Origin: a virus
Lineage: Duplodnaviria > Heunggongvirae > Uroviricota > Caudoviricetes
IMG/VR virus record: IMGVR_UViG_638341196_000008
Reading direction: 5' to 3' (one strand)
DNA: 44,694 bases
The translations under genes were made by a program, and so were the position numbers. The notes beneath the pieces are model-generated. The model did not search any database. It worked only from the letters and a program-made list of their open reading frames with translations, and was not told the origin of the DNA. Below are positions 1-44,694 of the stretch, piece after piece; the first letter of the stretch is position 1; each line of letters begins with the position of its first letter.

Positions 1-2164
<2,164 letters not shown>

Positions 2165-2363
2165 TACGTATCCTTATACCTGAAATCTTCGCAAGTATGC
2201 CTGGCCGCGAGATTATGGCACACTTGTCCGGTTAACTCTCGTCTCATACAGGTAACACAAACGTGAAAATCCTTGTTGATGAAAAAAATGATGACTTAAT
2301 TTATTGATGTAAAAGGATTTATGTCAGCGAGTGTCCACGCAGTGACCACATTTTCGAGTACAG

Positions 2364-2400
2364 ATAACACAAAGCCCGTTTTCACGGGCTTTGTGTTATC
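2364..2400. terminator. Perfect 17-bp stem hairpin (gataacacaaagcccgt / acgggctttgtgttatc), likely terminator of the upstream minus-strand two-gene islet
   Basis: Inverted repeat read directly; lies 32 bp downstream of the 297-aa ORF stop; no strong U-tract on either strand. Confidence 0.45.
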
Positions 2401-2431
2401 TGTGATTGTGGCTAAGCCACATGATTTAATA

Positions 2432-3325
2432 CTATTTCCAGTTACAAGCAGCTTGAAGCGGTTTTAGCGCGTTTGACAGGCCGTTTAAATTGAAAGTTGC
2501 ACTTACGGGGCTCTCATTATAAGGCGTTATTTTTGTATACATTTTGCTTGAGTTGGCTAGTTTTCGGATGAAATCAATGTCATTACCTTTATAAAAAACA
2601 GCCTTTGTATCTGTAGATACTAGCCAGTTTCGCTCAACTGCTTTCTGTTTATCAAGGCGATAAAGCATGCTGGTTTGTTCAAGGCCTAAATATACATCCC
2701 AACTAAGAAATACTTCGGTTTTCTTTTCTCGGCAAGCTATAAACAGAGTAGGAGTAACCGCTTCTCCAAATGGAGTTCTGATATAATCATCACTTTCTAA
2801 CGATAGAATTACATTTTTCGAATCATCAATTGGCGATGTAGTAATGGATGTGTGCCATTTTCCTACATCTGTGGCTTTCTCTAATTTTGATTCAGCTTGA
2901 ACGGCTTTATCCTGTGGGAATAGTTTATCGTAGCAGTTTAGTCTGGCTTCTTTATCATTTTCTGCACGACATTTAGATATCTCAGAAAAATTTGGTTGCT
3001 GAGCCTCTGTTGTTACTGGCTTTTCCGTTTTAGATTTTGAGTTTACAGATGGAGTAAATGTTGGAGAAAAGAAACGATCATAACAAGATAAACGTCTATC
3101 ATCATCTTTCTCATCAGGGCATTGATCTCTGCTTTCGAATTTTTCAGCAACTTTCGTTCGAGTCGGTTGTATTGACTTATCGTAACAAGAAAGTCTGTCT
3201 TTATTATTTTCTATTGCTCGGCACTGGAGTACTGCATTGAAGTTCTTATGTTCAGTTGCTGCGTGAACAGGCAGTACACTAATTGATATAAATGATGCAC
3301 CTATAGAAAAAATTATATTTTTCAT
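2432..3325 (-). CDS. Secreted protein with three RL[S/N]CYD[K/R] repeats and a C-terminal domain; function unknown (possibly T6SS-associated VasI-like, uncertain)
   Basis: N-terminal signal peptide (MKNIIFSIGASFISISVLPVHA); repeats RLSCYDK, RLSCYDRFF, RLNCYDKLF; AT-rich codon usage. Confidence 0.6.
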   Translation of the reverse strand: MKNIIFSIGASFISISVLPVHAATEHKNFNAVLQCRAIENNKDRLSCYDKSIQPTRTKVAEKFESRDQCPDEKDDDRRLSCYDRFFSPTFTPSVNSKSKTEKPVTTEAQQPNFSEISKCRAENDKEARLNCYDKLFPQDKAVQAESKLEKATDVGKWHTSITTSPIDDSKNVILSLESDDYIRTPFGEAVTPTLFIACREKKTEVFLSWDVYLGLEQTSMLYRLDKQKAVERNWLVSTDTKAVFYKGNDIDFIRKLANSSKMYTKITPYNESPVSATFNLNGLSNALKPLQAACNWK

Positions 3326-3329
3326 TTTA

Positions 3330-3662
3330 TTACCCCTTTGGTTTAGTAAGAAATACTAAAATTCCGATAATGATATCGCCAATAACCCATAAGCTTCCAA
3401 TGGTAATTAAACCTAAGCCTGTACCAATAACTGCACCGGCTTTTTCGGCATCGGATGTGGCATTATTTATTATTTCACTAGTGCCTCCTAGTCCAACTAA
3501 AAGCGTATAGGTCATAAAAATATTAAATAATATAAAAACCCACTTAATGATCCGTCCAAAAAATGAACGCTTAAGTTTTTGTAGTTGTTTACCACAAGCA
3601 GGGCAATACAATGCTGAATCGCTTACCTCTTTCTGGCATTCAGGACATTTGATTAATGCCAT
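3330..3662 (-). CDS. Zinc-ribbon membrane protein (CPxC...CPxC followed by two hydrophobic helices), unknown function
   Basis: CPECQ...CPACG motif then TM segments; 4-nt gap to downstream ORF (operon); strong SD AAAGGAGG upstream. Confidence 0.6.
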   Translation of the reverse strand: MALIKCPECQKEVSDSALYCPACGKQLQKLKRSFFGRIIKWVFILFNIFMTYTLLVGLGGTSEIINNATSDAEKAGAVIGTGLGLITIGSLWVIGDIIIGILVFLTKPKG

Positions 3663-3699
3663 GTAATCCGCCTCCTTTGGATTAATACGAGTTGATATT

Positions 3700-3755
3700 T
3701 GTTACAAAACATTTTGATTTTATCAGATTTTTTTTATTGATAAGTGTCAATTGAT
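3700..3755 (-). promoter_or_regulatory. Putative promoter of the islet operon (TTGACA ... TGaTAAAAT extended -10 on minus strand)
   Basis: Hexamers read on the reverse complement upstream of the 3330..3662 ORF; -35/-10 spacing is longer than optimal. Confidence 0.3.
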
Positions 3756-3923
3756 TAGCTGGTATAGAGTGAGGCATATAGAAGGGCTGAGCTGCGTCAG
3801 TATGTGATGCAAAAATCCCACAGTTTCATGGAATTTTTGCATTTAGAGCTGTGAGATAGGGTGCCTTATCGACCTTACCCTGGCAACCGATTGACGGGGG
3901 ATTGCTCCCCCGTCGCGGTTTCC

Positions 3924-4064
3924 TTACTGCTTACACTGTAAGAACGCCGCAAACTCCGCTCCCCAGAAGCTCATCCGTATTTCACACAGCGAACCGTGTA
4001 GCATCCAGATGATGAGGATTACCGTCACGCAGAACGTGATGGCCGTAAGCGATTTTTGCGACAT
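3924..4064 (-). CDS. Hok/Gef-family type I toxin-like small membrane protein, 46 aa (MSQKSLTAITFCVTVILIIWMLHGSLCEIRMSFWGAEFAAFLQCKQ)
   Basis: Hand-translated (below the 60-aa ORF track cutoff); TM helix followed by conserved SLCEIR and E(F)AAFL motif as in HokA/Hok; SD AAGGAG 8 nt upstream. Confidence 0.6.
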   Translation of the reverse strand: MSQKSLTAITFCVTVILIIWMLHGSLCEIRMSFWGAEFAAFLQCKQ

Positions 4065-4255
4065 AGCGCTTGCTCCTTTGTTGGAGAGGCGCTAACCTAT
4101 CACTTGCTTAAGGTAGATATGTTAGGGCCTCGGTTAAACAAAAATGTTTTCCGGGGCCTTTCCACATCTGGCCTTCGGGTATTCCCTCCGACCATCAGCC
4201 GAAAGGCACCCGCGCGTAATCTATCGCTTTTTTGTTACTCCGGCAATTCTGCCTG

Positions 4256-4516
4256 TTAATTCTGAGGTAAAGGCAAACTCATCTGATTGTTTCCCCTGTG
4301 TGAAGCTGGCAGTTCATGCCACGGGATACCTTCTGAAGAGTGAACGCCGGAGGCATGTTTCGATGTGAATTTATGGAAAGCTTCCAGTGTTGAGAAGCAT
4401 ACGCCGCATTCCAAGTTGTTACACTGGTAATACTTTTGCCGCACGGTGTTTGAATCATTTTCCGGACGACTGGTGCGGATACGGGCAGATGCGCCACAAA
4501 GCGGACAACGGAACAT
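4256..4516 (-). CDS. ogr: Ogr-like late transcription activator (C4 zinc finger)
   Basis: MFRCPLCG...C..C motif and similarity to P2 Ogr; sits next to D as in P2. Confidence 0.8.
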   Translation of the reverse strand: MFRCPLCGASARIRTSRPENDSNTVRQKYYQCNNLECGVCFSTLEAFHKFTSKHASGVHSSEGIPWHELPASHRGNNQMSLPLPQN

Positions 4517-4558: not shown

Positions 4559-5668
4559 TCACTCTGTTTCCGCTATCCATTCCGGGATTTTTGCCTCAAG
4601 CTCAAGCTGCGTGGTAAAGCCGCTGTTATCAATGGTGTGCTCGACTTTCGCAATAATCCAGTCCTGATTATCAATCTCGCTTTTAAATCCTGTTACCGTG
4701 CCATGCATTTCGGGGTAGAGTTCTGCGCGTCCACGTGCCAGTGTGATGGAGAACGCTGCGGCTCCGCGTTGTAGCTGCTGCCACTTTGCCGCCGCTGCGC
4801 GTCTTGCTGCCTGCTCGTTCTGATAAGTCTTGCGTAACACAAACACATTGCCTTCCGCGCCTTCCATATAATCACCTTCACGGCTGCTGCTTTTCTCCTT
4901 TTTCGGTTTGGGTGGTTTGCGGCGTTTCACGCTGACTTTTTTCTTTTTCCCATAGTTAAGATCAAGCCAGTAGGCGCGCACCCCCGTATACGCCTCGCGG
5001 TCAGCAATGCGGAACTGATGGCGATCGCCGCTGCTGCGTGTGATGGCGAACGATGGCAACGGCTGGCCCTGTGCGTTCACGCCACCACCTGGCATGATGA
5101 ATAACAGATTGCCGCTTTTTACCGTGGTGATTGCGCCCAGCATTTCCGCCATGCGCGTAAGGAAGGACATGTCGCTTTCTTCGGTCTGGTCGGCGTGGTC
5201 GATTTCGATCTCCATCAGCATTTCGCTGATTTGCGGTTTCAGACCGTACCGATGAGCGATGGCAGATACCACGCGCTCAACGGTCACATCATGCCAGGAT
5301 ACTTCATGTTTAACGTTAAATTCATCCCGAAAATCTGCGCTTCTGGCTGAAACAGTCAGCCTGTCCGGCGGTCATTCGTGAGCGATTTCATCAACAATGT
5401 AAGTGCCTTTTTCTGTCAGCGGTTCTCCTTTCCAGCCAATGAGAACCGTCAGGCGCGCGCCCCGTGGCGGTAGCTGCAACTGACCATCCGCATCATCCAG
5501 CGTGATGGTGAGCTGGTCCGCCTCAAATCCCCGGTTGTCGGTCAGTGACAGGCTCATCAGGCGCTCTGCCACGCCTGACAGCGCTTTACCCTCCGCGAGA
5601 ATATCAAAATCCGGCATTTTCACGGGGTCTGTGCCCTGACTGAGCAATTGCATGGTGGTGTCGGTCAT
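4559..5668 (-). pseudogene. D: P2 gpD-like tail protein interrupted by an in-frame TGA at 5372-5374
   Basis: ORFs 5372..5800 and 4559..5287 are in the same frame (start offset 87 nt); hand translation across the gap reads ...DEIAHE*PPDRLTVSARSADFRDEF...; SD GGGAGGG before ATG at 5668. Confidence 0.7.
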
Positions 5669-29488: not shown

Positions 29489-30448
29489 TTACTCCTTGTC
29501 CATTGCGTACAGCCCATTAACCAGAGCAAACTGTGGCACCCCGTCCGCGATGAAAGTCGCATTAACTCCGCAGGCTTCGCGGATAGCGGGTGCCACAATC
29601 TCCGCTCCTCCACCTACAACCATCACCCGCCCGTAACCCGAAAAACCCGCCAGCGCGCGGATCACGCGTTGTTTCAGTGTTTCTTCCTTTTCACGAATAA
29701 CCGCCATCAGGCTGGCGTAATGTGCGTCATTGTGGATGTGCTGGCGCAGCCAGGCTTCATCATGGCGATGTTCGATAATGGTATTGGCGATGTGGTGACT
29801 GGTACGCATACCGTTAGTGGCCATCACCGACAGTACGGCATCGGCCATCAGGGAAACGCCTACGTGTGGATCGCAAAATACCTGGCTGATACCTGCCAAC
29901 TGCCCCTGAACCTTTGCCACATCCAGCGTGGTTCCGCCCAAATCCACAATCAGCAGGGATTCAAACGGACTCATGTCAGCCAGTGTTTTAAAGCCAGTTG
30001 GAATGGATTCAGGCATAACCCGTACGTTACGGATAGTGAATGCTTCGCCGTTCTGGTACTCCACCGGGCGCATAACGTTCGCTTTTTTGCGGTTGATGTT
30101 GGCCATGTCCGGCTGTGCGTTTGTGTCGAAATACTCGCTCAGTGGCAGGGTGACAACCACATCCACCTCCTGTGGCGTGATGCCTGATTTGACCAGCGCG
30201 TGATGAATGGCAATGACATTCACATCGCTGTACTGGTATTGCGTGTCGGTCGTCTGGACAAAGCGATCGCTGACCGGATCAAAACCATAGCGCACGCCAT
30301 CAAGCATGTAGTTCGCGGGCTGCGTGCCACCGAACGGCGCAGACCATTCCGACTTGAAGCTGTTCGGGCTGATGGCGTTGCGGCGTTCGCCGTTCTCAGT
30401 CCATGCCAGCTTGATGTTGGTGGAGCCGTCGTCGATACAAATTTTCAT
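29489..30448 (-). CDS. parM: ParM/StbA-like actin-family partition ATPase
   Basis: 319 aa; strong similarity to R1 ParM throughout (IDDGSTNIKL, YSDVNVIAIHHAL, MPESIP, DLGGTTLD, GGGAE). Confidence 0.8.
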   Translation of the reverse strand: MKICIDDGSTNIKLAWTENGERRNAISPNSFKSEWSAPFGGTQPANYMLDGVRYGFDPVSDRFVQTTDTQYQYSDVNVIAIHHALVKSGITPQEVDVVVTLPLSEYFDTNAQPDMANINRKKANVMRPVEYQNGEAFTIRNVRVMPESIPTGFKTLADMSPFESLLIVDLGGTTLDVAKVQGQLAGISQVFCDPHVGVSLMADAVLSVMATNGMRTSHHIANTIIEHRHDEAWLRQHIHNDAHYASLMAVIREKEETLKQRVIRALAGFSGYGRVMVVGGGAEIVAPAIREACGVNATFIADGVPQFALVNGLYAMDKE

Positions 30449-30591
30449 GTCGCTTTTCCTTATGTTGATTAATTAATCGTTTACGGGATTCTGAAATCCC
30501 GTTTTTTCCGTAAGCGCCCCATCAGCGACGTCTTGTGAAAATTGTCCTGTCTGGCAACAATCGCGCCCATCTATATTGATGGACACGAACG

Positions 30592-31077
30592 ATGAATTCC
30601 CAGACAACAAAAGATATTCCCTGCTTCCGTTCTTATTTGCCTGATGCCCTGCGTTTAAGATTTGAAGATAAACTGACCATCCGGGCCATCGCTCAGCGTC
30701 TGGGTCTCAGTCATTCCACAATACATACGCTTTTTCAGCGATTTCTTGCATCCGGTATCGCATGGCCATTGCCCGATTCAGTTTCATTCGCTCAACTTGA
30801 CGCCATCCTTTATGCCAACAGAAAGAAGGAATTAACAGAGCCTCAAATCAGAGAAGGCTCATGGCGAAAAGAACGGCGAACCAGCTATAGCCGTGAATTT
30901 AAGGTCCGTCTGGCTAAGCAGGCGTTACAGCCTGGGGCTGTTGTTGCCCGGATCGCCAGAGAACACGATATCAATGATAACCTGCTGTTTAAATGGAAAA
31001 GCCAGTACGAGGACGGCTTACTGAGCGATGATGACATACAGGCATACAGGAATGCATGCCTGTCCCGGTGGCACTGA
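30592..31077 (+). CDS. IS66-family accessory HTH protein (transposase_8-like)
   Basis: 161 aa with ...YSREFKVRLAKQALQPGAVVARIAREHDINDNLLFKWKSQY HTH region. Confidence 0.65.
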   Translation: MNSQTTKDIPCFRSYLPDALRLRFEDKLTIRAIAQRLGLSHSTIHTLFQRFLASGIAWPLPDSVSFAQLDAILYANRKKELTEPQIREGSWRKERRTSYSREFKVRLAKQALQPGAVVARIAREHDINDNLLFKWKSQYEDGLLSDDDIQAYRNACLSRWH

Positions 31078-31274
31078 CTGATACGCCGGAGCCGACCAGA
31101 CCAGTTACAAATCCCTTCTGGCGTAACAAGCATGATGAGCGCCCTGAGGGGGCTCCCGGAAACGTCCCACGGTGCGAGCTGCATCTTAAATCAGGTGTGG
31201 TAAAACTGTTTGACCCTCTCACTCCGGAACTGTTACGGGCGCTAATCCGCGAAATGAAAGGGGGTATCCGATGA
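31056..31274 (+). CDS. IS66-family small ORF (TnpA-like), ATGA-overlapping tnpB
   Basis: 72-aa ORF whose stop overlaps the TnpB start. Confidence 0.45.
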   Translation: MPVPVALTDTPEPTRPVTNPFWRNKHDERPEGAPGNVPRCELHLKSGVVKLFDPLTPELLRALIREMKGGIR

Positions 31275-31618
31275 TAACGCTGCCGACCGGTACCAGAATC
31301 TGGATCATCGCTGGCATCACAGATATGCGTTGTGGCTTCAATGGCCTGGCTTCGAAGGTGCAGAACACGCTGAAAGATGACCCGTTCTCCGGGCATATCT
31401 TCGTCTTCCGGGGCCGCAGTGGCAAAATGGTGAAAATACTGTGGGCCGATCGTGACGGGTTATGCCTGTTCGCCAAACGCCTGGAACGGGGCCGCTTCGT
31501 CTGGCCGGTGACCCGGGAAGGGAAAGTGCACCTGACGCCAGCTCAGTTATCCATGCTACTGGAGGGGATCGCGTGGCAACATCCCACACGGACAGAACGG
31601 CCTGGCATCCGGATATAA
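31271..31618 (+). CDS. tnpB: IS66-family TnpB
   Basis: 115 aa, MITLPTGTRIWIIAGITDMR... typical of IS66 Orf2. Confidence 0.8.
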   Translation: MITLPTGTRIWIIAGITDMRCGFNGLASKVQNTLKDDPFSGHIFVFRGRSGKMVKILWADRDGLCLFAKRLERGRFVWPVTREGKVHLTPAQLSMLLEGIAWQHPTRTERPGIRI

Positions 31619-31637
31619 CCCGTGATAAAACAAGGGA

Positions 31638-33195
31638 ATGAACAATGAACTCCCCGATGATATTGAGCTGCTTAAAGCCATGTTGCGTAAGCAACAGAGT
31701 CGGCTTCGACAGTATGCCTGTCAGGTCGCGGGCTATGAGCAGGAAATTGAACGGCTGAAAGCGCAACTCGACAGGTTGCGTCGTATGTTGTTCGGCCAGA
31801 GTTCAGAGAAAAAGCGTCATAAGCTTGAAAATCAGATCCGACAGGCAGAAAAACGACTGTCGGAACTGGAAAACCGGCTGAACACAGCCAGAAATCTTCT
31901 GGAAGATGCATCGTCAGTCACAGATTCACCTGACACCAGTCCCCCGTCAGAAAACCCGATCGCCAGTAAGCCTGAATCCCCGGGAGACACATCGCCTTCT
32001 GCCTGCTGAAACCAGTTGCCCGGCCTGTGGAGGTGTTCTGAAAGAAATGGGGGAAACAATCTCAGAGCAACTGGATATCATTAATACCGCCTTTAAAGTT
32101 ATCGAAACCATACGTCCCAAACTGGCCTGTAGCCGGTGTGATGTCATCGTTCAGGCACCACTTCCCCCTAAACCGATCGAACGCGGTTATGCCAGTGCAG
32201 GGTTACTTGCACGGATCCTGGTCAGCAAATATATGGAACATATCCCTTTATATCGCCAGTCAGAAATATACGCGCGACAGGGCGTGGAGCTGAGCCGTAA
32301 TACCATGGTGCGCTGGGTATCAGAAATGGCAGACAAACTCCGTCCTCTGTATATAGCGCTGAATGACTATGTTCTGGAGGCAGGAAAGGTGCACGCAGAT
32401 GACACTCCGGTGAAAGTACTGGCCCCGGGGAACGGAAAGACGAAAACGGGTCGTCTGTGGGTATACGTCAGGGATGATCGTAATGCGGGTTCATCCCTGC
32501 CGGCAGCCGTCTGGTTCGCGTATTCGGCAGATCGCAAAGGAGAACATCCGCAGCTCCACCTGGCAAAGTATCAGGGCGTACTGCAGGCTGATGCCTATGC
32601 AGGTTATAACGTACTGTACGAAACGGGCCGGGTGAAGGAAGCCGGGTGCCTGGCCCACGCCCGCCGAAAAATCCATGACGAGGATGTGCGCCGTCCGACA
32701 GAAATGACTCAGGAAGCGCTCAGACGGATAGCAGAGTTATACGACATAGAAGCGGAGATACGTGGCAGTCCGGCAGAGGAACGGCTTGCAGTCAGAAAAG
32801 CCAGAAGCGTCCAGTTGATGCAGTCGTTGTACGACTGGATACAGTTGCAGAGGAAAACGCTGTCGAAACATGCGGAGATGGCGAAGGCGTTCGACTATAT
32901 CCTGAATCACTGGAATGCGCTGAACGAGTTCTGTCGTGACGGCTGGGTGGAAATAGACAACAACATCGGTGAAAACGCGTTACGATCGGTGGCGGTTGGA
33001 AGAAAAAATTATCTCTTTTTCGGCTCAGACAAGGGAGGAGAAAGTGCGGCGATCATCTACAGTCTGCTGGTCACCTGCAAACAGAACGAAGTGGAGCCGG
33101 AGGACTGGTTGCGCGAAGTGATCGAGAAGCTCAATGACTGGCCGTCGAACCAAGTGCATGAACTGCTGCCCTGGAACTTCTCGTCTGTAAAATAA
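31638..33195 (+). pseudogene. tnpC: IS66-family transposase TnpC, split by a frame change between 31906 and 32009
   Basis: N-terminal leucine-zipper ORF (31638..32009) and main ORF (31906..33195, containing CPACGG zinc finger) are in different frames; same in copy B. Confidence 0.7.
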
Positions 33196-33227
33196 TCCTT
33201 ACGCTACGTACTTCTCGGGGCGCTTAC

Positions 33228-33235
33228 ATTTCTCC
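33228..33235. repeat. 8-bp target-site duplication half (ATTTCTCC) at copy A right end
   Basis: Reverse complement of GGAGAAAT at 43653..43660, flanking copy B outer end. Confidence 0.7.
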
Positions 33236-34334: not shown

Positions 34335-34700
34335 ATGATTGATGTCTTAGGGCCGGAGAAACGCAGACGGCGTACCACACAGGAAAAGATCGCAATTGTT
34401 CAGCAGAGCTTTGAACCGGGGATGACGGTCTCCCTCGTTGCCCGGCAACATGGTGTAGCAGCCAGCCAGTTATTTCTCTGGCGTAAGCAATACCAGGAAG
34501 GAAGTCTTACTGCTGTGGCCGCCGGAGAACAGGTTGTTCCTGCCTCTGAACTTGCTGCCGCCATGAAGCAGATTAAAGAACTCCAGCGCCTGCTCGGCAA
34601 GAAAACGATGGAAAATGAACTCCTCAAAGAAGCCGTTGAATATGGACGGGCAAAAAAGTGGATAGCGCACGCGCCCTTATTGCCCGGGGATGGAGAGTAA
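34335..34700 (+). CDS. insC: IS2 InsC (OrfA)
   Basis: [47 protein letters not shown]... matches IS2 InsC. Confidence 0.9.
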
Positions 34701-35563
34701 GCTTAGTCAGCCGTTGTCTCCGGGTGTCGCGTGCGCAGTTGCACGTCATTCTCAGACGAACCGATGACTGGATGGATGGCCGCCGCAGTCGTCACACTGA
34801 TGATACGGATGTGCTTCTCCGTATACACCATGTTATCGGAGAGCTGCCCACGTATGGTTATCGTCGGGTATGGGTGCTGCTTCGCAGACAGGCAGAACTT
34901 GATGGTATGCCTGCGAACAATGCCAAACGTGTTTACCGGATCATGCGCCAGAATGCGCTGTTGCTTGAGCGAAAACCTGCTGTACCGCCATCGAAACGGG
35001 CACATACAGGCAGAGTGGCCGTGAAAGAAAGCAATCAGCGATGGTGCTCTGACGGGTTCGAGTTCTGCTGTGATAACGGAGAGAGACTGCGTGTCACGTT
35101 CGCGCTGGACTGCTGTGATCGTGAGGCACTGCACTGGGCGGTGACTACCGGCGGCTTCAACAGTGAAACAGTACAGGACGTCATGCTGGGAGCGGTGGAA
35201 CGCCGCTTCGGCAACGATCTTCCGTCGTCTCCAGTGGAGTGGCTGACGGATAATGGTTCATGCTACCGGGCTAATGAAACACGCCAGTTCGCCCGGATGT
35301 TGGGACTTGAACCGAAGAACACGGCGGTGCGGAGTCCGGAGAGTAACGGAATAGCAGAGAGCTTCGTGAAAACGATAAAGCGTGACTACATCAGTATCAT
35401 GCCCAAACCAGACGGGTTAACGGCAGCAAAGAACCTTGCAGAGGCGTTCGAGCATTATAACGAATGGCATCCGCATAGTGCGCTGGGTTATCGCTCGCCA
35501 CGGGAATATCTGCGGCAGCGGGCTTGTAATGGGTTAAGTGATAACAGATGTCTGGAAATATAG
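34658..35563 (+). CDS. insD: IS2 InsD transposase (OrfB)
   Basis: 301-aa DDE transposase characteristic of IS2. Confidence 0.9.
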
Positions 35564-38646: not shown

Positions 38647-40938
38647 ATGACGGCAGAGTACATCAGGGACTGGCAACAACCGCGCCACGCAGTGGGGCGT
38701 GAAGGAACGGGGATCCCCGCTCCTGAATCCGTGCTTTCCTCCTGGCTGGATGCCTACCGGGTAGAGAACGAGCGCCGCCAGGAAATGGCTAATGCGGCGT
38801 TCTCCGCCACGCCGCTGGGCAACCTGATTAATAAAAGCCTGGACGCACAGGAAAAACAGGACAAAACCATCACACTGGCAGGAGACGCCAGAAAACAGGC
38901 ACGCGGCGCGGTGGATGAAGCCATGGCCTCGCTGCACCTGCTGCCGTCCTATCTGCGCGATCCGCTTATTCGCCACCTCTCCTTCCTGCGCAAAAAACAG
39001 GAAGCCGATCGCCGGAAAGGCAAAAAGAGCTGGCAGGCGGAACGCTATGCACGCGGAACCCTGCGCAAAATATTCGAACGTCTGGATCGCACTGACGGAC
39101 ACTGGCTGACACCGGGTTATCGCTCCCTTGCCGGACGCGAACGCCTGGACGATTTGCTTTACCTGCCGCAGCTCAACAAACACCAGATACAGACGCTGGC
39201 CACCATGACGGCGGCGATGTTCAGCAGCACCTTCGAAAAACTCTGCGATGGCTTTGGCGCGACCGATGGCGAACTGACCATGGATGTAACGCTGAAGGCG
39301 TATCAGATGCTGGCCCGCATGGCGTTACACCTGCACGCCATGCCTCCACATTATGACGCACTGACAACAGACAAAGACCGGAGGAACGAACCGGACACGG
39401 AGCTGCTGCCGGGCGCAATCCTTCGCCTGACCTGTGCGGAATGGTGGAAACGCAAACTGTGGCTGTTACGTTGCGAGTGGAGAGAAGAACAACTCCGCGC
39501 CGCCTGTCTGGTTTCCAGAAAAACATCACCCTATCTGAGCCAGGACGCGTTAAGCGAGTTTCGCGCACAGCGCGAGAAAACACGCGATTTCCTGAAAAGT
39601 TTCATGCTGGAAAACGAAGACGGGTTCACGATTGATCTCGAGACAGTGTATTACGCGGGAGTAAGTAACCCGGTTCACCGTAAGGCAGAAATGATGGCCA
39701 CCATGAAGGGGCTGGAACTTCTGGCCGAAGCCCGTGGCGACAAAGCGGTGTTTCTGACTGTCACCTGCCCGTCAAAATACCACGCCACAACAGAGAACAG
39801 TCATCCGAATCCCAAATGGAACGGGGCCACCATGCGCGACTCCAGCGATTACCTGGTTAACACGTTTTTTGCAGCGGTCCGCAAGAAACTGAACCGCGAC
39901 GGCCTGCGCTGGTATGGCATCCGCACGGTGGAGCCTCACCATGACGGCACCGTGCACTGGCATATGATGGTCTTTGCTCATCCGGAAGAAATCGACACCA
40001 TTGTGTCCCACACCCGCGATATTGCCATTCAGGAAGATCGTCACGAGCTGGGTGATGATATTACCCCACGCTTTAAGGCGGAGTACGTCGACGGCTCAAA
40101 AGGCACGCCAACCAGCTACATCGCCACCTACATCGGAAAGAACCTGGACAGCCGCGCCGTGGATGGCATCGACCCGAAAACGGGCAAGCCACGCGTTGAC
40201 CACGAAACAGGTAAATCAATGGCCGAGAGCGTGGAGCGCGCCATCGGCTGGGCGCGCCTTCACCGGGTCCGCCAGTTCCAGTTCTTTGGCATCCCCTCCC
40301 GTCAGGTGTGGCGTGAACTCCGCCGCCTTGCCAGCCAGATAGCACGCAACCCAGAAGGCCCGCAACGGCTGAAGGATGACGCAATGGATGCGGTTCTTGC
40401 TGCCGCTGATGCCGGGTGTTTTGCCACCTACATTGAAAAACAGGGTGGCGTACTTGTTCCGCGCAAGGACTACCTGATTCGCACAGCCTACGACCTCGCA
40501 GATGAGCTGAACGATTACGGCGAACAGAGTGTACAGATTTACGGGATCTGGTCGCCATTCATCGGGGAATCCTCCCGTGTGTGCACGCATCCGGATAACT
40601 GGAAGCTGGTAAGACGTAAACCGGAAGCGGAGGACAGCACCCGCGAAAATGGTTTTGACCTTCAGGGCGGCCCTGCCGCCCCTTGGACTCGTGGCAATAA
40701 CTGTCCCCGTGTACAGGAAACGGACAACAACGGGACAGAACAGCCGAAAGAACGGCCAGCACCGTGGCCGCAGCTCCCTGACGGCGTTGAAGTGAACGAA
40801 TGGATGCGCTCACTGAAACGGCACGAACGCCGGGCGCTGATGCGTTCGCTTCGTGACAAACAGGCAAAAAACAGCAGTGATGAAATGCAGAGCTGGACAC
40901 AGAGCCGCAAACAGCAGCGGCCTTTGCCTGATAAGTAA
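38647..40938 (+). CDS. A: Rolling-circle replication initiator gpA-like; last codon and stop supplied by the IS66 end
   Basis: 763 aa; HUH-type motif HWHMMVF and active-site tyrosines YIATYIGK; stop TAA lies inside GTAAGCG of the IS terminus. Confidence 0.8.
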   Translation: MTAEYIRDWQQPRHAVGREGTGIPAPESVLSSWLDAYRVENERRQEMANAAFSATPLGNLINKSLDAQEKQDKTITLAGDARKQARGAVDEAMASLHLLPSYLRDPLIRHLSFLRKKQEADRRKGKKSWQAERYARGTLRKIFERLDRTDGHWLTPGYRSLAGRERLDDLLYLPQLNKHQIQTLATMTAAMFSSTFEKLCDGFGATDGELTMDVTLKAYQMLARMALHLHAMPPHYDALTTDKDRRNEPDTELLPGAILRLTCAEWWKRKLWLLRCEWREEQLRAACLVSRKTSPYLSQDALSEFRAQREKTRDFLKSFMLENEDGFTIDLETVYYAGVSNPVHRKAEMMATMKGLELLAEARGDKAVFLTVTCPSKYHATTENSHPNPKWNGATMRDSSDYLVNTFFAAVRKKLNRDGLRWYGIRTVEPHHDGTVHWHMMVFAHPEEIDTIVSHTRDIAIQEDRHELGDDITPRFKAEYVDGSKGTPTSYIATYIGKNLDSRAVDGIDPKTGKPRVDHETGKSMAESVERAIGWARLHRVRQFQFFGIPSRQVWRELRRLASQIARNPEGPQRLKDDAMDAVLAAADAGCFATYIEKQGGVLVPRKDYLIRTAYDLADELNDYGEQSVQIYGIWSPFIGESSRVCTHPDNWKLVRRKPEAEDSTRENGFDLQGGPAAPWTRGNNCPRVQETDNNGTEQPKERPAPWPQLPDGVEVNEWMRSLKRHERRALMRSLRDKQAKNSSDEMQSWTQSRKQQRPLPDK

Positions 40939-43652
40939 GCGCCCCGAGAAGTACGTAGCGTAAGGATTATTTTACAGACGAGAAGTTCCAGGGCAGCAGT
41001 TCATGCACTTGGTTCGACGGCCAGTCATTGAGCTTCTCGATCACTTCGCGCAACCAGTCCTCCGGCTCCACTTCGTTCTGTTTGCAGGTGACCAGCAGAC
41101 TGTAGATGATCGCCGCACTTTCTCCTCCCTTGTCTGAGCCGAAAAAGAGATAATTTTTTCTTCCAACCGCCACCGATCGTAACGCGTTTTCACCGATGTT
41201 GTTGTCTATTTCCACCCAGCCGTCACGACAGAACTCGTTCAGCGCATTCCAGTGATTCAGGATATAGTCGAACGCCTTCGCCATCTCCGCATGTTTCGAC
41301 AGCGTTTTCCTCTGCAACTGTATCCAGTCGTACAACGACTGCATCAACTGGACGCTTCTGGCTTTTCTGACTGCAAGCCGTTCCTCTGCCGGACTGCCAC
41401 GTATCTCCGCTTCTATGTCGTATAACTCTGCTATCCGTCTGAGCGCTTCCTGAGTCATTTCTGTCGGACGGCGCACATCCTCGTCATGGATTTTTCGGCG
41501 GGCGTGGGCCAGGCACCCGGCTTCCTTCACCCGGCCCGTTTCGTACAGTACGTTATAACCTGCATAGGCATCAGCCTGCAGTACGCCCTGATACTTTGCC
41601 AGGTGGAGCTGCGGATGTTCTCCTTTGCGATCTGCCGAATACGCGAACCAGACGGCTGCCGGCAGGGATGAACCCGCATTACGATCATCCCTGACGTATA
41701 CCCACAGACGACCCGTTTTCGTCTTTCCGTTCCCCGGGGCCAGTACTTTCACCGGAGTGTCATCTGCGTGCACCTTTCCTGCCTCCAGAACATAGTCATT
41801 CAGCGCTATATACAGAGGACGGAGTTTGTCTGCCATTTCTGATACCCAGCGCACCATGGTATTACGGCTCAGCTCCACGCCCTGTCGCGCGTATATTTCT
41901 GACTGGCGATATAAAGGGATATGTTCCATATATTTGCTGACCAGGATCCGTGCAAGTAACCCTGCACTGGCATAACCGCGTTCGATCGGTTTAGGGGGAA
42001 GTGGTGCCTGAACGATGACATCACACCGGCTACAGGCCAGTTTGGGACGTATGGTTTCGATAACTTTAAAGGCGGTATTAATGATATCCAGTTGCTCTGA
42101 GATTGTTTCCCCCATTTCTTTCAGAACACCTCCACAGGCCGGGCAACTGGTTTCAGCAGGCAGAAGGCGATGTGTCTCCCGGGGATTCAGGCTTACTGGC
42201 GATCGGGTTTTCTGACGGGGGACTGGTGTCAGGTGAATCTGTGACTGACGATGCATCTTCCAGAAGATTTCTGGCTGTGTTCAGCCGGTTTTCCAGTTCC
42301 GACAGTCGTTTTTCTGCCTGTCGGATCTGATTTTCAAGCTTATGACGCTTTTTCTCTGAACTCTGGCCGAACAACATACGACGCAACCTGTCGAGTTGCG
42401 CTTTCAGCCGTTCAATTTCCTGCTCATAGCCCGCGACCTGACAGGCATACTGTCGAAGCCGACTCTGTTGCTTACGCAACATGGCTTTAAGCAGCTCAAT
42501 ATCATCGGGGAGTTCATTGTTCATTCCCTTGTTTTATCACGGGTTATATCCGGATGCCAGGCCGTTCTGTCCGTGTGGGATGTTGCCACGCGATCCCCTC
42601 CAGTAGCATGGATAACTGAGCTGGCGTCAGGTGCACTTTCCCTTCCCGGGTCACCGGCCAGACGAAGCGGCCCCGTTCCAGGCGTTTGGCGAACAGGCAT
42701 AACCCGTCACGATCGGCCCACAGTATTTTCACCATTTTGCCACTGCGGCCCCGGAAGACGAAGATATGCCCGGAGAACGGGTCATCTTTCAGCGTGTTCT
42801 GCACCTTCGAAGCCAGGCCATTGAAGCCACAACGCATATCTGTGATGCCAGCGATGATCCAGATTCTGGTACCGGTCGGCAGCGTTATCATCGGATACCC
42901 CCTTTCATTTCGCGGATTAGCGCCCGTAACAGTTCCGGAGTGAGAGGGTCAAACAGTTTTACCACACCTGATTTAAGATGCAGCTCGCACCGTGGGACGT
43001 TTCCGGGAGCCCCCTCAGGGCGCTCATCATGCTTGTTACGCCAGAAGGGATTTGTAACTGGTCTGGTCGGCTCCGGCGTATCAGTCAGTGCCACCGGGAC
43101 AGGCATGCATTCCTGTATGCCTGTATGTCATCATCGCTCAGTAAGCCGTCCTCGTACTGGCTTTTCCATTTAAACAGCAGGTTATCATTGATATCGTGTT
43201 CTCTGGCGATCCGGGCAACAACAGCCCCAGGCTGTAACGCCTGCTTAGCCAGACGGACCTTAAATTCACGGCTATAGCTGGTTCGCCGTTCTTTTCGCCA
43301 TGAGCCTTCTCTGATTTGAGGCTCTGTTAATTCCTTCTTTCTGTTGGCATAAAGGATGGCGTCAAGTTGAGCGAATGAAACTGAATCGGGCAATGGCCAT
43401 GCGATACCGGATGCAAGAAATCGCTGAAAAAGCGTATGTATTGTGGAATGACTGAGACCCAGACGCTGAGCGATGGCCCGGATGGTCAGTTTATCTTCAA
43501 ATCTTAAACGCAGGGCATCAGGCAAATAAGAACGGAAGCAGGGAATATCTTTTGTTGTCTGGGAATTCATCGTTCGTGTCCATCAATATAGATGGGCGCG
43601 ATTGTTGCCAGACAGGACAATTTTCACAAGACGTCGCTGATGGGGCGCTTAC
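40935..43652 (-). mobile_element. IS66-family insertion sequence, copy B, identical to copy A and inverted
   Basis: All ORFs mirror copy A with a constant coordinate sum (74162); ORFs 43085..43570, 42888..43106, 42544..42891, 42153..42524 and 40967..42256. Confidence 0.85.
40967..42524 (-). pseudogene. tnpC: IS66-family TnpC of copy B (same frame change)
   Basis: Mirror of 31638..33195. Confidence 0.7.
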
Positions 43653-43660
43653 GGAGAAAT
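43653..43660. repeat. 8-bp target-site duplication half (GGAGAAAT) at copy B outer end
   Basis: Reverse complement of 33228..33235. Confidence 0.7.
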
Positions 43661-43689
43661 TGTAGAGCGGTTCATTGGAGGGCTTCGTA

Positions 43690-44694
43690 ATGTCGATTAA
43701 GAAGCTCGAAGATGGTCGTTATTTGCTGGACATCAGGCCGAACGGACGCAAGGGAAAGCGCGTGCGTAAGGTATTTGACAAAAAATCGGTAGCGGTGGCC
43801 ACTGAACGCTACATCATGGCGAACGCTGAAAAGCGGGAATATATACAGGGCTACCGTGATCGTCGAACGCTAAATGATTTGCTTGAGTTGTGGTGGATGT
43901 ATCACGGCCAGCACAGGCGTAAGGCGGAAGAAGACCGAAAACAACTGCGCAACATAATCAATGAGCTTGGCGCTGATATGCAGGCTGTGGATCTTGATAA
44001 GCTGAAAATTATCGCGTGGCGTTCTCAAAAGATAGCTGAAGGATTGAAACCGTCATCTGCTAACAGGTACATGAATCGGTTATCCGGAATGTTTACCGTG
44101 CTGAAAAAAATAGGTCTTTGGGATGCAGAACATCCAGTAAGGGGAATTTCTATTCTTTATGTATCTCCACGAGAAATGGCGTTCCTGTCACAGAAGGAAG
44201 TGGCGCTATTGCTCGATACACTGGAGGGCGACTATTGGCGTGTTGCGCTTTTGTGTTTAAGCACAGGGGCGCGCTGGAGTGAAGCTTGTAAGCTTCGTGG
44301 TGAACAGATAGTTCATAACCGTGTAACGTTTCTTGAAACCAAAAATGGCCGGAAGAGAACAGTGCCAATTTCGCAGGCAGTTTGTGAGGCGATCAAAACC
44401 AGAGAAACAGGCGGCTTGTTTGAGGTGAAGTACCGGGAATTCTGCCTGGCGCTGAAAAGAGTTAAGCCCGATTTACCAAAAGGCCAGGCTGCACATGTGC
44501 TGCGGCATACGTTCGCCAGCCATTTTGTGATGAACGGAGGAAACATTATTGCGCTTCAGAAGATTCTTGGTCACGCAACCATTCAGCAAACAATGGCATA
44601 TGCGCATTTTGCACCGGATTACCTGCAGGATGCGGTGGCCCTTAATCCGCTGAAAGGTGGCGTAAGTGTCCACGCAGTGTCCACTGGGGATTAA
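43690..44694 (+). CDS. int: P2-type tyrosine integrase
   Basis: MSIKKLEDGRY...; conserved R..H..R..Y catalytic region (LRHTFASH...MAYAHF) closely parallels P2 Int; stop at window end. Confidence 0.85.
   Translation: MSIKKLEDGRYLLDIRPNGRKGKRVRKVFDKKSVAVATERYIMANAEKREYIQGYRDRRTLNDLLELWWMYHGQHRRKAEEDRKQLRNIINELGADMQAVDLDKLKIIAWRSQKIAEGLKPSSANRYMNRLSGMFTVLKKIGLWDAEHPVRGISILYVSPREMAFLSQKEVALLLDTLEGDYWRVALLCLSTGARWSEACKLRGEQIVHNRVTFLETKNGRKRTVPISQAVCEAIKTRETGGLFEVKYREFCLALKRVKPDLPKGQAAHVLRHTFASHFVMNGGNIIALQKILGHATIQQTMAYAHFAPDYLQDAVALNPLKGGVSVHAVSTGD

Follow-up and report, generated by a model that had tools for sequence, protein, structure and literature searches.

What are the two AT-rich genes that lie next to flk on an Escherichia coli chromosome, and to which element do they belong? 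They are found in a 44,694-nucleotide (nt) stretch of DNA, IMG/VR virus record IMGVR_UViG_638341196_000008, the whole of which we refer to here as the window; one encodes a 110-amino-acid (110-aa) zinc-ribbon membrane protein and the other a 297-aa protein of the VasI/TagO family. A first-pass annotation had set them between flk and the neighbouring prophage. The explanation that we favour, to which we give as a whole a probability of about 60%, is that the pair is an envelope moron of a P2-like prophage, that is, a lysogenic-conversion cargo, probably serving exclusion or defence. The identity of the genes and their nature as cargo are near certain, whereas the functional part (expression in the lysogen, a change of the envelope, and exclusion or defence) has about one chance in three of being right.

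The window is a piece of E. coli chromosome that carries yfcJ, then flk (1169-2164, minus strand) and then the P2-like prophage. In an alignment with the uninterrupted flk-pdxB locus of strain K-12, identity stops at about position 2285, within the first codons of pdxB, and nothing similar is found beyond. This chromosome/prophage junction holds the attachment (att) core, the 20-bp AAAATCCTTGTTGATGAAAA (2266-2285, no strand applicable), which has only one copy within the window. In strain C7, which shows 99.6% identity to window positions 2200-4100, it occurs again about 36 kb away, adjoining a phage integrase and the remainder of pdxB. Since the att core lies on the flk side of the two genes, the islet is prophage DNA, and the gene order in the prophage reads att, terminator hairpin, 297-aa gene, 110-aa gene, hok/sok, ogr, D and tail genes; the ogr/Delta late-gene activator (4256-4516, minus strand), a conserved phage gene, bounds the cargo region. 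That the pair is prophage cargo and not a chromosomal island is thus near certain, and its initial placement outside the prophage is contradicted by the att core, by the end of K-12 homology and by the phage records that carry it. The accompanying suggestion of horizontal acquisition, possibly with the prophage, was borne out, as the pair lies within the att boundaries and moves with P2-like phages of several genera.

Of 5426 complete E. coli genomes, only 240 carry the two genes, which are hence no conserved core-genome locus; every examined chromosomal copy in this species sits at the end of a P2-like prophage, at either pdxB or fieF. Five independently deposited phage genomes have it at the same end, namely those of Escherichia PhiR44_2 (98.6%), Citrobacter PhiSM (98.4%), 500465-2 (97%), P884B11 (a Xuanwuvirus, 91.6%) and 3LV2017 of Klebsiella (66%). 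The order D-ogr-(hok)-zinc-ribbon gene-VasI-like gene is kept over different att sites and genera, namely pdxB and fieF of E. coli, Klebsiella, Raoultella, Dickeya, Brenneria and Salmonella. A tblastn survey of one genome per species (GTDB) returned ten loci with a VasI-like gene, with the zinc-ribbon gene directly upstream in eight of the ten and D and ogr alongside in six. Searched likewise by tblastn, IMG/VR yielded 74 viral contigs with a VasI-like gene, mostly at the extreme end of a 31-38 kb contig. The zinc-ribbon gene lies immediately upstream on the same strand in 64 of these (86%), mostly with gaps of a few nucleotides; D-ogr is present in 66, D-ogr and the VasI-like gene occur without the partner in three, and the VasI-like gene is alone in seven. 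No genes of a type VI secretion system (T6SS) were seen near any examined locus with gene calls.

The two genes also occur apart. A VasI-like gene without the zinc-ribbon gene is found in Salmonella, in Pantoea coffeiphila and beside integrases of other elements, and in the two lone-VasI contigs of IMG/VR that we inspected it stands beside the integrase of a different element. Single-repeat VasI-like genes with the motif RLxCFD (loci L108, 4926-5555, and L113, 4932-5591) adjoin tyrosine integrases of non-P2 elements and have no zinc-ribbon partner; the VasI family therefore recurs as att-proximal cargo beyond P2-like phages. Some related P2-like prophages have no zinc-ribbon gene or a different partner, and another P2-like prophage of E. 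coli, which lies at ytfP, has a 250-aa VasI-like gene convergent with the gene of a different small protein with a C4 zinc ribbon and two transmembrane (TM) segments, belonging to the TM2 domain family. The zinc-ribbon gene alone is a conserved chromosomal gene in Pantoea (L013-L015), lying in the cueR-copA interval, a P2-like att region as well; it is widespread there and retains the conserved promoter described below. In Haemophilus paracuniculus (L016) it stands alone between uvrB and leuB. These lone zinc-ribbon/two-TM genes look like domesticated remnants. A prophage remnant of Enterobacter cloacae, likewise located between cueR and copA, contains the complete pair, and in Enterobacter mori the pair is present with no phage genes detected alongside.

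Nine copies of the pair among the E. coli genomes are on plasmids. The one that was examined, from enterotoxigenic E. coli (ETEC; L020, p204446_146), is a broken prophage end, D'-ogr-hok-ZnR-TagO (ZnR, zinc-ribbon gene), in which the TagO gene is frameshifted; this fragment has moved onto large plasmids, beside a group II intron. The same frameshifted VasI allele is found at pdxB in a related chromosomal lineage (L038, O166:H15), and the lineage is about 91% identical with its zinc-ribbon gene intact.

Is the pair organized as a unit of its own? Its two minus-strand open reading frames, 3330-3662 (110 aa) and 2432-3325 (297 aa), are 4 nt apart and have GC contents of 0.36 and 0.37, compared to 0.52 for flk and the prophage tail genes. 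A Shine-Dalgarno sequence, AGGAGG (3671-3676, minus strand), lies 8 nt before the ATG of the zinc-ribbon gene, and AAGGGG (3333-3338) is found ahead of the ATG of the second gene. Both the low GC content unlike that of the flanks and the operon with a strong Shine-Dalgarno sequence had been described correctly from the outset. The same holds for the presence of a perfect hairpin downstream but not for its length, given as 17 bp: the hairpin (2360-2403, no strand applicable) has 20-bp perfect arms (2360-2379 and 2384-2403) around a 4-nt loop and is stronger than claimed. It contains a GC-rich core (GCCCG...CGGGC) with A- and T-rich arms around it, and the region folds with an energy of -43.4 kcal/mol (z = -8.7 relative to shuffled sequence). 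This inverted repeat looks like a bidirectional intrinsic terminator that would end the operon, and in relatives a GC-rich hairpin of different sequence is likewise found 3' of the second gene. Rfam matches over the hairpin to the rimP leader and MIR2600 were far below the gathering scores and were rejected as chance.

Upstream of the operon we could delineate a predicted sigma-70-like promoter region (3698-3750, minus strand). The block CTTGTCAAT-N14-TCCGATAAAAT is near-invariant in E. coli, Klebsiella, Raoultella, Enterobacter and Pantoea, where coding DNA is only 62-71% identical, and it fits a sigma-70 promoter with -35 TTGTCA and -10 TAAAAT. The window itself has -35 TTATCA (3738-3743) and -10 TAAAAT (3717-3722) with a 15-nt spacer, as well as an extra TTGACA at 3745-3750. 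Phages that lack hok/sok have the promoter block immediately after the intrinsic terminator of ogr. The putative promoter was recognised by cross-taxon comparison and the hairpin by folding; a generic promoter/terminator scan called neither the conserved promoter nor the 20-bp hairpin. Just downstream of the -10 element lies an 11-bp palindrome, TTTGTAACAAA (3698-3708), conserved from E. coli to Pantoea, which could be an operator for some regulator or an element of the 5' untranslated region.

The downstream gene (2432-3325, minus strand) encodes a predicted secreted or periplasmic protein of the VasI/TagO family. Its residues 118-296 match Pfam VasI PF11319 over profile positions 1-184 of 184 with 89 bits (E 3.9e-25; gathering cutoff, 26.5), and a weaker match is obtained to the IalB family. 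The initial statement that the function is not recognisable is hence only half true, as the family of this protein can be recognised at an E value of 3.9e-25. The protein reaches 76.2 bits with NCBIfam TIGR03360, the T6SS VasI equivalog, which is under the curated cutoff of 124.2, and its RefSeq name is "type VI secretion system-associated protein TagO." At the N terminus there is a signal-like sequence (predicted signal peptide, residues 1-22) that ends in VHA/AT and has no lipobox, followed by three C-x11-C-Y-D repeats with the motif RL[S/N]CYD, namely CRAIENNKDRLSCYD (35-49), CPDEKDDDRRLSCYD (69-83) and CRAENDKEARLNCYD (119-133). The signal peptide and the three repeats, noted before as RL[S/N]CYD[K/R], are indeed both visible in the sequence. 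VasI-like homologs have three, two or one repeats, with lengths of about 297, 250 or 210-218 aa.

In an AlphaFold model built with 23 homologs, the repeats form helix hairpins, and residues 150-297 form a confident beta-sandwich (predicted local distance difference test score, >90) that includes C198 and C294; the model superposes significantly on the IalB structure (PDB 3dtd). The C-x11-CYD hairpins are predicted to be disulfide-stapled helices, and the protein is predicted to be Sec-exported to the periplasm. A search of PDB sequences with a profile of the VasI alignment returned chance-level matches only. The same fold is present in uncharacterised proteins of lytic T4-like phages (Escherichia RB16, Klebsiella KP15 and Aeromonas 65.2) and of Serratia phage MTx (BFVD).

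The upstream gene (3330-3662, minus strand) encodes a predicted inner-membrane protein with a putative cytoplasmic C4 zinc ribbon (residues 1-27) and a two-TM hairpin (34-66 and 71-105). Its N terminus matches Pfam Zn_Ribbon_1 PF13240 (31.8 bits, E 1.1e-7; cutoff, 25) with two CxxC knuckles, formed by C6, C9, C20 and C23; in 25 homologs, C6, C20 and C23 are invariant and C9 is nearly so, and the domain is predicted as a candidate zinc-binding ribbon. The AlphaFold2 model shows a beta ribbon at residues 1-26 and long helices at 34-66 and 71-105, and the protein matches phrog_6586 at 8e-41. The small zinc-ribbon/two-TM protein of the first-pass annotation was thus recovered, with four cysteines matching Zn_Ribbon_1 and two long predicted helices, and its proposal of an envelope-acting location agrees with the predicted signal peptide of the one protein and the ribbon and two predicted TM helices of the other. 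The basic residues present at both ends of the helical hairpin suggest an N-in/C-in topology.

A further lead comes from the C terminus of the 110-aa family, where the invariant motif T106-x-P108-K109 aligns with YTRPRP of DrpB (YedR), an E. coli septal-ring protein. The 110-aa protein scores 19.2 bits against NF038392 (DrpB) with E 1.1e-3, the curated cutoff being 50, and hhalign aligns it collinearly with K-12 DrpB at E 1.1e-3 and a probability of 21%. Matches to PF28000 (DrpB/YedR) are listed for six of its homologs, being marked weak for one Klebsiella gene. An exhaustive profile search with the membrane domain of the protein gathered 336 clusters with E values of at most 1e-10; the ribbon is missing from many members of the family, which are 85-100 aa in length, and the same borderline DrpB match was seen in six of ten that were scanned. 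As judged from these alignments, the relationship to DrpB is weak, a lead and not a membership. A relationship to the TM2 domain was rejected, as hhalign matches the zinc ribbon alone, and the membrane parts are analogous, not demonstrably homologous.

Both genes have dN/dS values (ratio of nonsynonymous to synonymous substitution rates) of 0.06-0.10 against distant homologs and are under purifying selection. In the ETEC lineage with the broken VasI gene, dN/dS of the partner is up at 0.52. The pair is intact in the window, despite a stop codon in gene D and IS66 copies in the prophage.

What could such an operon do for its carrier? It lies inside a prophage, has an atypical GC content and is variably present among related phages, as is typical of a moron. 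We propose that the pair would be a self-contained cargo operon with its own predicted promoter and terminator. The prophage that carries it is P2-like (Peduoviridae, Xuanwuvirus-type) and inserted into the 5' end of pdxB, with the operon at the extremity next to ogr. The operon would be transcribed in the lysogen from its own sigma-70-type promoter, and its products would alter the cell envelope to the lysogen's benefit. The likeliest benefit would be protection from contractile injection, i.e., from superinfecting phages, tailocins or T6SS attack. This might be achieved by direct interference in the periplasm or at the inner membrane, as with Imm and Sp of T4 or Glo of K139, or by setting off an envelope response, for instance Rcs, in the manner of DrpB; the pair itself would not be a T6SS component. 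Exclusion or defence is favoured because the ogr-att interval also gathers hok/sok, a RES-domain gene and a hydrolase gene, because both products face compartments that an injected genome crosses, and because the module is kept after the death of the phage, as in the E. cloacae remnants, the ETEC plasmids and the defective prophage of the window. A further reason is that the receptor of PhiSM is the lipopolysaccharide (LPS) core (PMC6456863), which changes of the envelope or capsule could mask.

Several observations weigh against this explanation. Each gene is also found without the other, so that the two could be separate pieces of cargo and not a single system. Since the VasI-like gene is frameshifted in the ETEC lineage, any benefit must be dispensable. 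The activity of the promoter is read from its conservation, and the E. coli copy has a short spacer of 15 nt. The link to DrpB is weak (19 bits compared to a cutoff of 50, and an hhalign probability of 21%). A scan of both proteins and Hok against PADLOC-DB v2 gave no match to a defence model (for the pair, at E values up to 1), and the literature searched contained no experiment or expression data on the operon. Finally, a 2026 review lists the function of VasI/TagO as unknown even within T6SS loci (PMC13584744), and IalB likewise has no known mechanism.

Other explanations have to be considered. Many hosts of these phages have T6SSs, and a phage-borne TagO/VasI gene that plugs into the T6SS of the host as an accessory factor would agree with the Pfam VasI match above the gathering score and with the RefSeq name TagO. 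The ORF1 gene of PhiSM has also been classed as virulence cargo of the T6SS VasI family (PMC6456863). We nevertheless regard this as very unlikely, since the NCBIfam equivalog cutoff was failed (76 versus 124 bits), no T6SS genes lie near the loci with gene calls while D-ogr stands beside the gene in 66 of 74 IMG/VR contigs and six of ten GTDB species loci, the small membrane protein that usually accompanies it has no known counterpart in T6SS loci, and the role of TagO within the T6SS is itself unknown (PMC13584744). The pair might alternatively function in the lytic growth of the phage, by a division block or septal wall remodelling through the DrpB-like protein or in tail penetration or lysis, being expressed by late readthrough from D-ogr. 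Its location on the same strand as D and ogr, the very stable synteny within one large P2-like clade, the link of DrpB to the divisome and the presence of the IalB/VasI fold in the lytic T4-like phages RB16 and KP15 all point in this direction, yet the operon has its own conserved predicted promoter after the ogr terminator and a moron-like atypical GC content, it persists in the remnants of dead prophages and, as single genes, in chromosomes, and the known essential functions of P2 are encoded elsewhere. A role in the phage life cycle consequently appears unlikely to us.

The independent occurrence of each gene would also be explained if two unrelated cargo genes had come to lie side by side, for example an IalB-type host-interaction or virulence factor and an independent small membrane protein; IalB is tied to host-cell invasion in Bartonella (PDB 3dtd entry name), and the hosts here include enteric pathogens. 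Such a coincidence is quite improbable given the same-strand adjacency in 64 of 74 viral contigs, mostly with few-nucleotide gaps, the non-homologous zinc-ribbon/two-TM protein in the partner position of another phage, and the dN/dS of the partner, raised to 0.52 where the VasI gene is broken. The suggestion made at the outset, of an effector with its immunity protein, and with it the reading as a toxin-antitoxin pair, would suit the architecture: two genes for small proteins share an operon on mobile DNA, with one product exported and the other membrane-bound. This explanation fared worst: Pfam, NCBIfam and PADLOC scans revealed no toxin, enzyme or delivery domain in either protein, the exported protein is found without the membrane protein and vice versa with no obligate co-occurrence, selection is strongly purifying with no pattern of polymorphic toxins, and the nearby hok/sok is a separate module, so that we consider it extremely improbable.

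The neighbours of the pair in the ogr-att interval deserve mention. The hok/sok toxin-antitoxin locus (3780-4211, minus strand) comprises the hok coding sequence (3924-4064; Hok/Gef in RefSeq, phrog_251 at 2.5e-23) and the sok RNA (4054-4211; Rfam, 47.6 bits, E 6e-9, under the gathering threshold of 59). The versions of the locus in Klebsiella, Dickeya and Brenneria lack this module. One E. coli lineage has a gene for a RES-domain (NAD+ phosphorylase-type toxin) protein between hok and the pair (L039, 6746-7573), and another prophage has an alpha/beta-hydrolase gene between D and ogr (L007, 10204-10962). The third cargo hotspot reported for P2-like phages lies between a tail protein and CI, and the ogr-att interval corresponds to it as a cargo position.

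As to the prophage of the window, the essential tail gene D (about 4559-5668, minus strand) has an in-frame stop at 5372-5374, and for this reason the prophage is probably defective; strain C7 has an intact D, and the annotations of other strains give the gene as truncated. Two inverted, 100% identical 2730-bp copies of an IS66-family insertion sequence (IS), at 30503-33232 and 40930-43659, enclose a 7.7-kb replication region with gpA (38647-40938) and an open reading frame for an IS3-type integrase core (34658-35563). Since gpA is flipped relative to int (43675-44694) compared with strain C7, an IS-mediated inversion of the gpA segment is suggested. Just before the first IS66 copy, between the virion and replication genes, lies a gene for a ParM-type plasmid-segregation ATPase (29489-30448, minus strand). 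The prophage is integrated in the first codons of pdxB (2263-2290). The int-side prophage end (L040, 6638-6700) provides AAGGAG and a TTG start in frame with the remaining pdxB, so that the interrupted gene probably remains expressed, its product being slightly extended at the N terminus; RefSeq calls a shorter pdxB, which starts at an internal ATG. Outside the prophage, yfcJ (1-1172, plus strand) has a 7-bp deletion at about 882 relative to K-12, which shifts the frame, and it looks like a pseudogene in this strain, unless this is a sequencing error.

How new is this locus? Both genes are already annotated in RefSeq, and the VasI-family gene had been catalogued before, as cargo ORF1 of PhiSM, a functional phage, under the label "virulence" (PMC6456863). 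In the literature searched, the coverage of which was incomplete, we found no study of the pair, its prophage position, its promoter or the DrpB-like nature of the partner; a search of work on TagO/VasI function, VCA0118, ogr/att cargo, superinfection exclusion and a 2026 survey of P2-like phages likewise gave no functional study of the pair. The RefSeq name TagO is misleading for a widespread prophage gene, which should not be scored as a marker of T6SS or virulence. Throughout Enterobacterales, temperate phages with contractile tails stably carry a family that had been known solely as a T6SS accessory lacking an explanation. The small zinc-ribbon protein with which it is nearly always coupled has a membrane domain similar to DrpB, a protein able to switch on Rcs. 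The function of three orphan families (TagO/VasI, IalB-like and DrpB-like) thereby becomes testable in E. coli. A bolder and, in our estimation, unlikely generalization is that VasI/TagO proteins would be mobile-element envelope factors acting on contractile injection machines at large, rather than T6SS parts, with the phage pair being a hitherto unrecognised two-component exclusion system that would block injection by phages, tailocins or the T6SS or switch on Rcs from the inner membrane. If true, this would for the first time offer a way into the mechanism of the orphan families TagO, IalB and DrpB.

Compared with VasI/TagO (PF11319, TIGR03360; VCA0118 of Vibrio cholerae), the 297-aa protein shares the C-x(10-11)-RLxCYD motif, a homologous C-terminal domain and a signal peptide, but it has three N-terminal repeats where VasI has one and remains under the equivalog cutoff; its gene lies at the att-proximal end of P2-like prophages, not in a T6SS cluster, and usually follows the gene of a zinc-ribbon membrane protein. 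IalB of Bartonella (PDB 3dtd, PF06776), at 14-19% identity, has no CYD repeats and is not phage-borne. DrpB has a two-helix hairpin of the same length as the 110-aa protein, with the N-in/C-in topology that is predicted for the latter, and an aligned C-terminal T-R-P motif. A predicted cytoplasmic C4 zinc ribbon is present in addition in the 110-aa protein, whose much larger family, of 336 or more clusters, would include DrpB as a diverged member. Septal localisation and suppression of ftsEX are among the experimental properties of DrpB (PMC7648144, PMC11709261), and its conservation is strongest at the distal end of the second transmembrane helix (Yahashiri et al., PMC7648144). In multicopy, it activates the Rcs phosphorelay independently of RcsF, T89 of its TRP motif being critical (Petchiappan et al., PMC11709261); this residue aligns with the invariant T106 of the 110-aa family.

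The lysogenic-conversion hotspots of P2, with old/tin between A and the portal gene and Z/fun in the tail region, hold AT-rich variable cargo at a fixed position, as is the case here. The present module differs from typical hotspot cargo in being far more conserved across genera, and it matched no known defence model. Closest in setting are the superinfection-exclusion envelope proteins Imm of T4, an inner-membrane protein with two TM segments, Sp of T4, which acts at the periplasmic face, and Glo, a periplasmic protein of the P2-like vibriophage K139. These are small proteins of the inner membrane or periplasm that are not needed for virion production, and glo is itself cargo of a P2-like phage. 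They have no sequence or fold relationship to the pair; the likeness lies in location and in cargo status, and by analogy with them the pair may exclude incoming phages.

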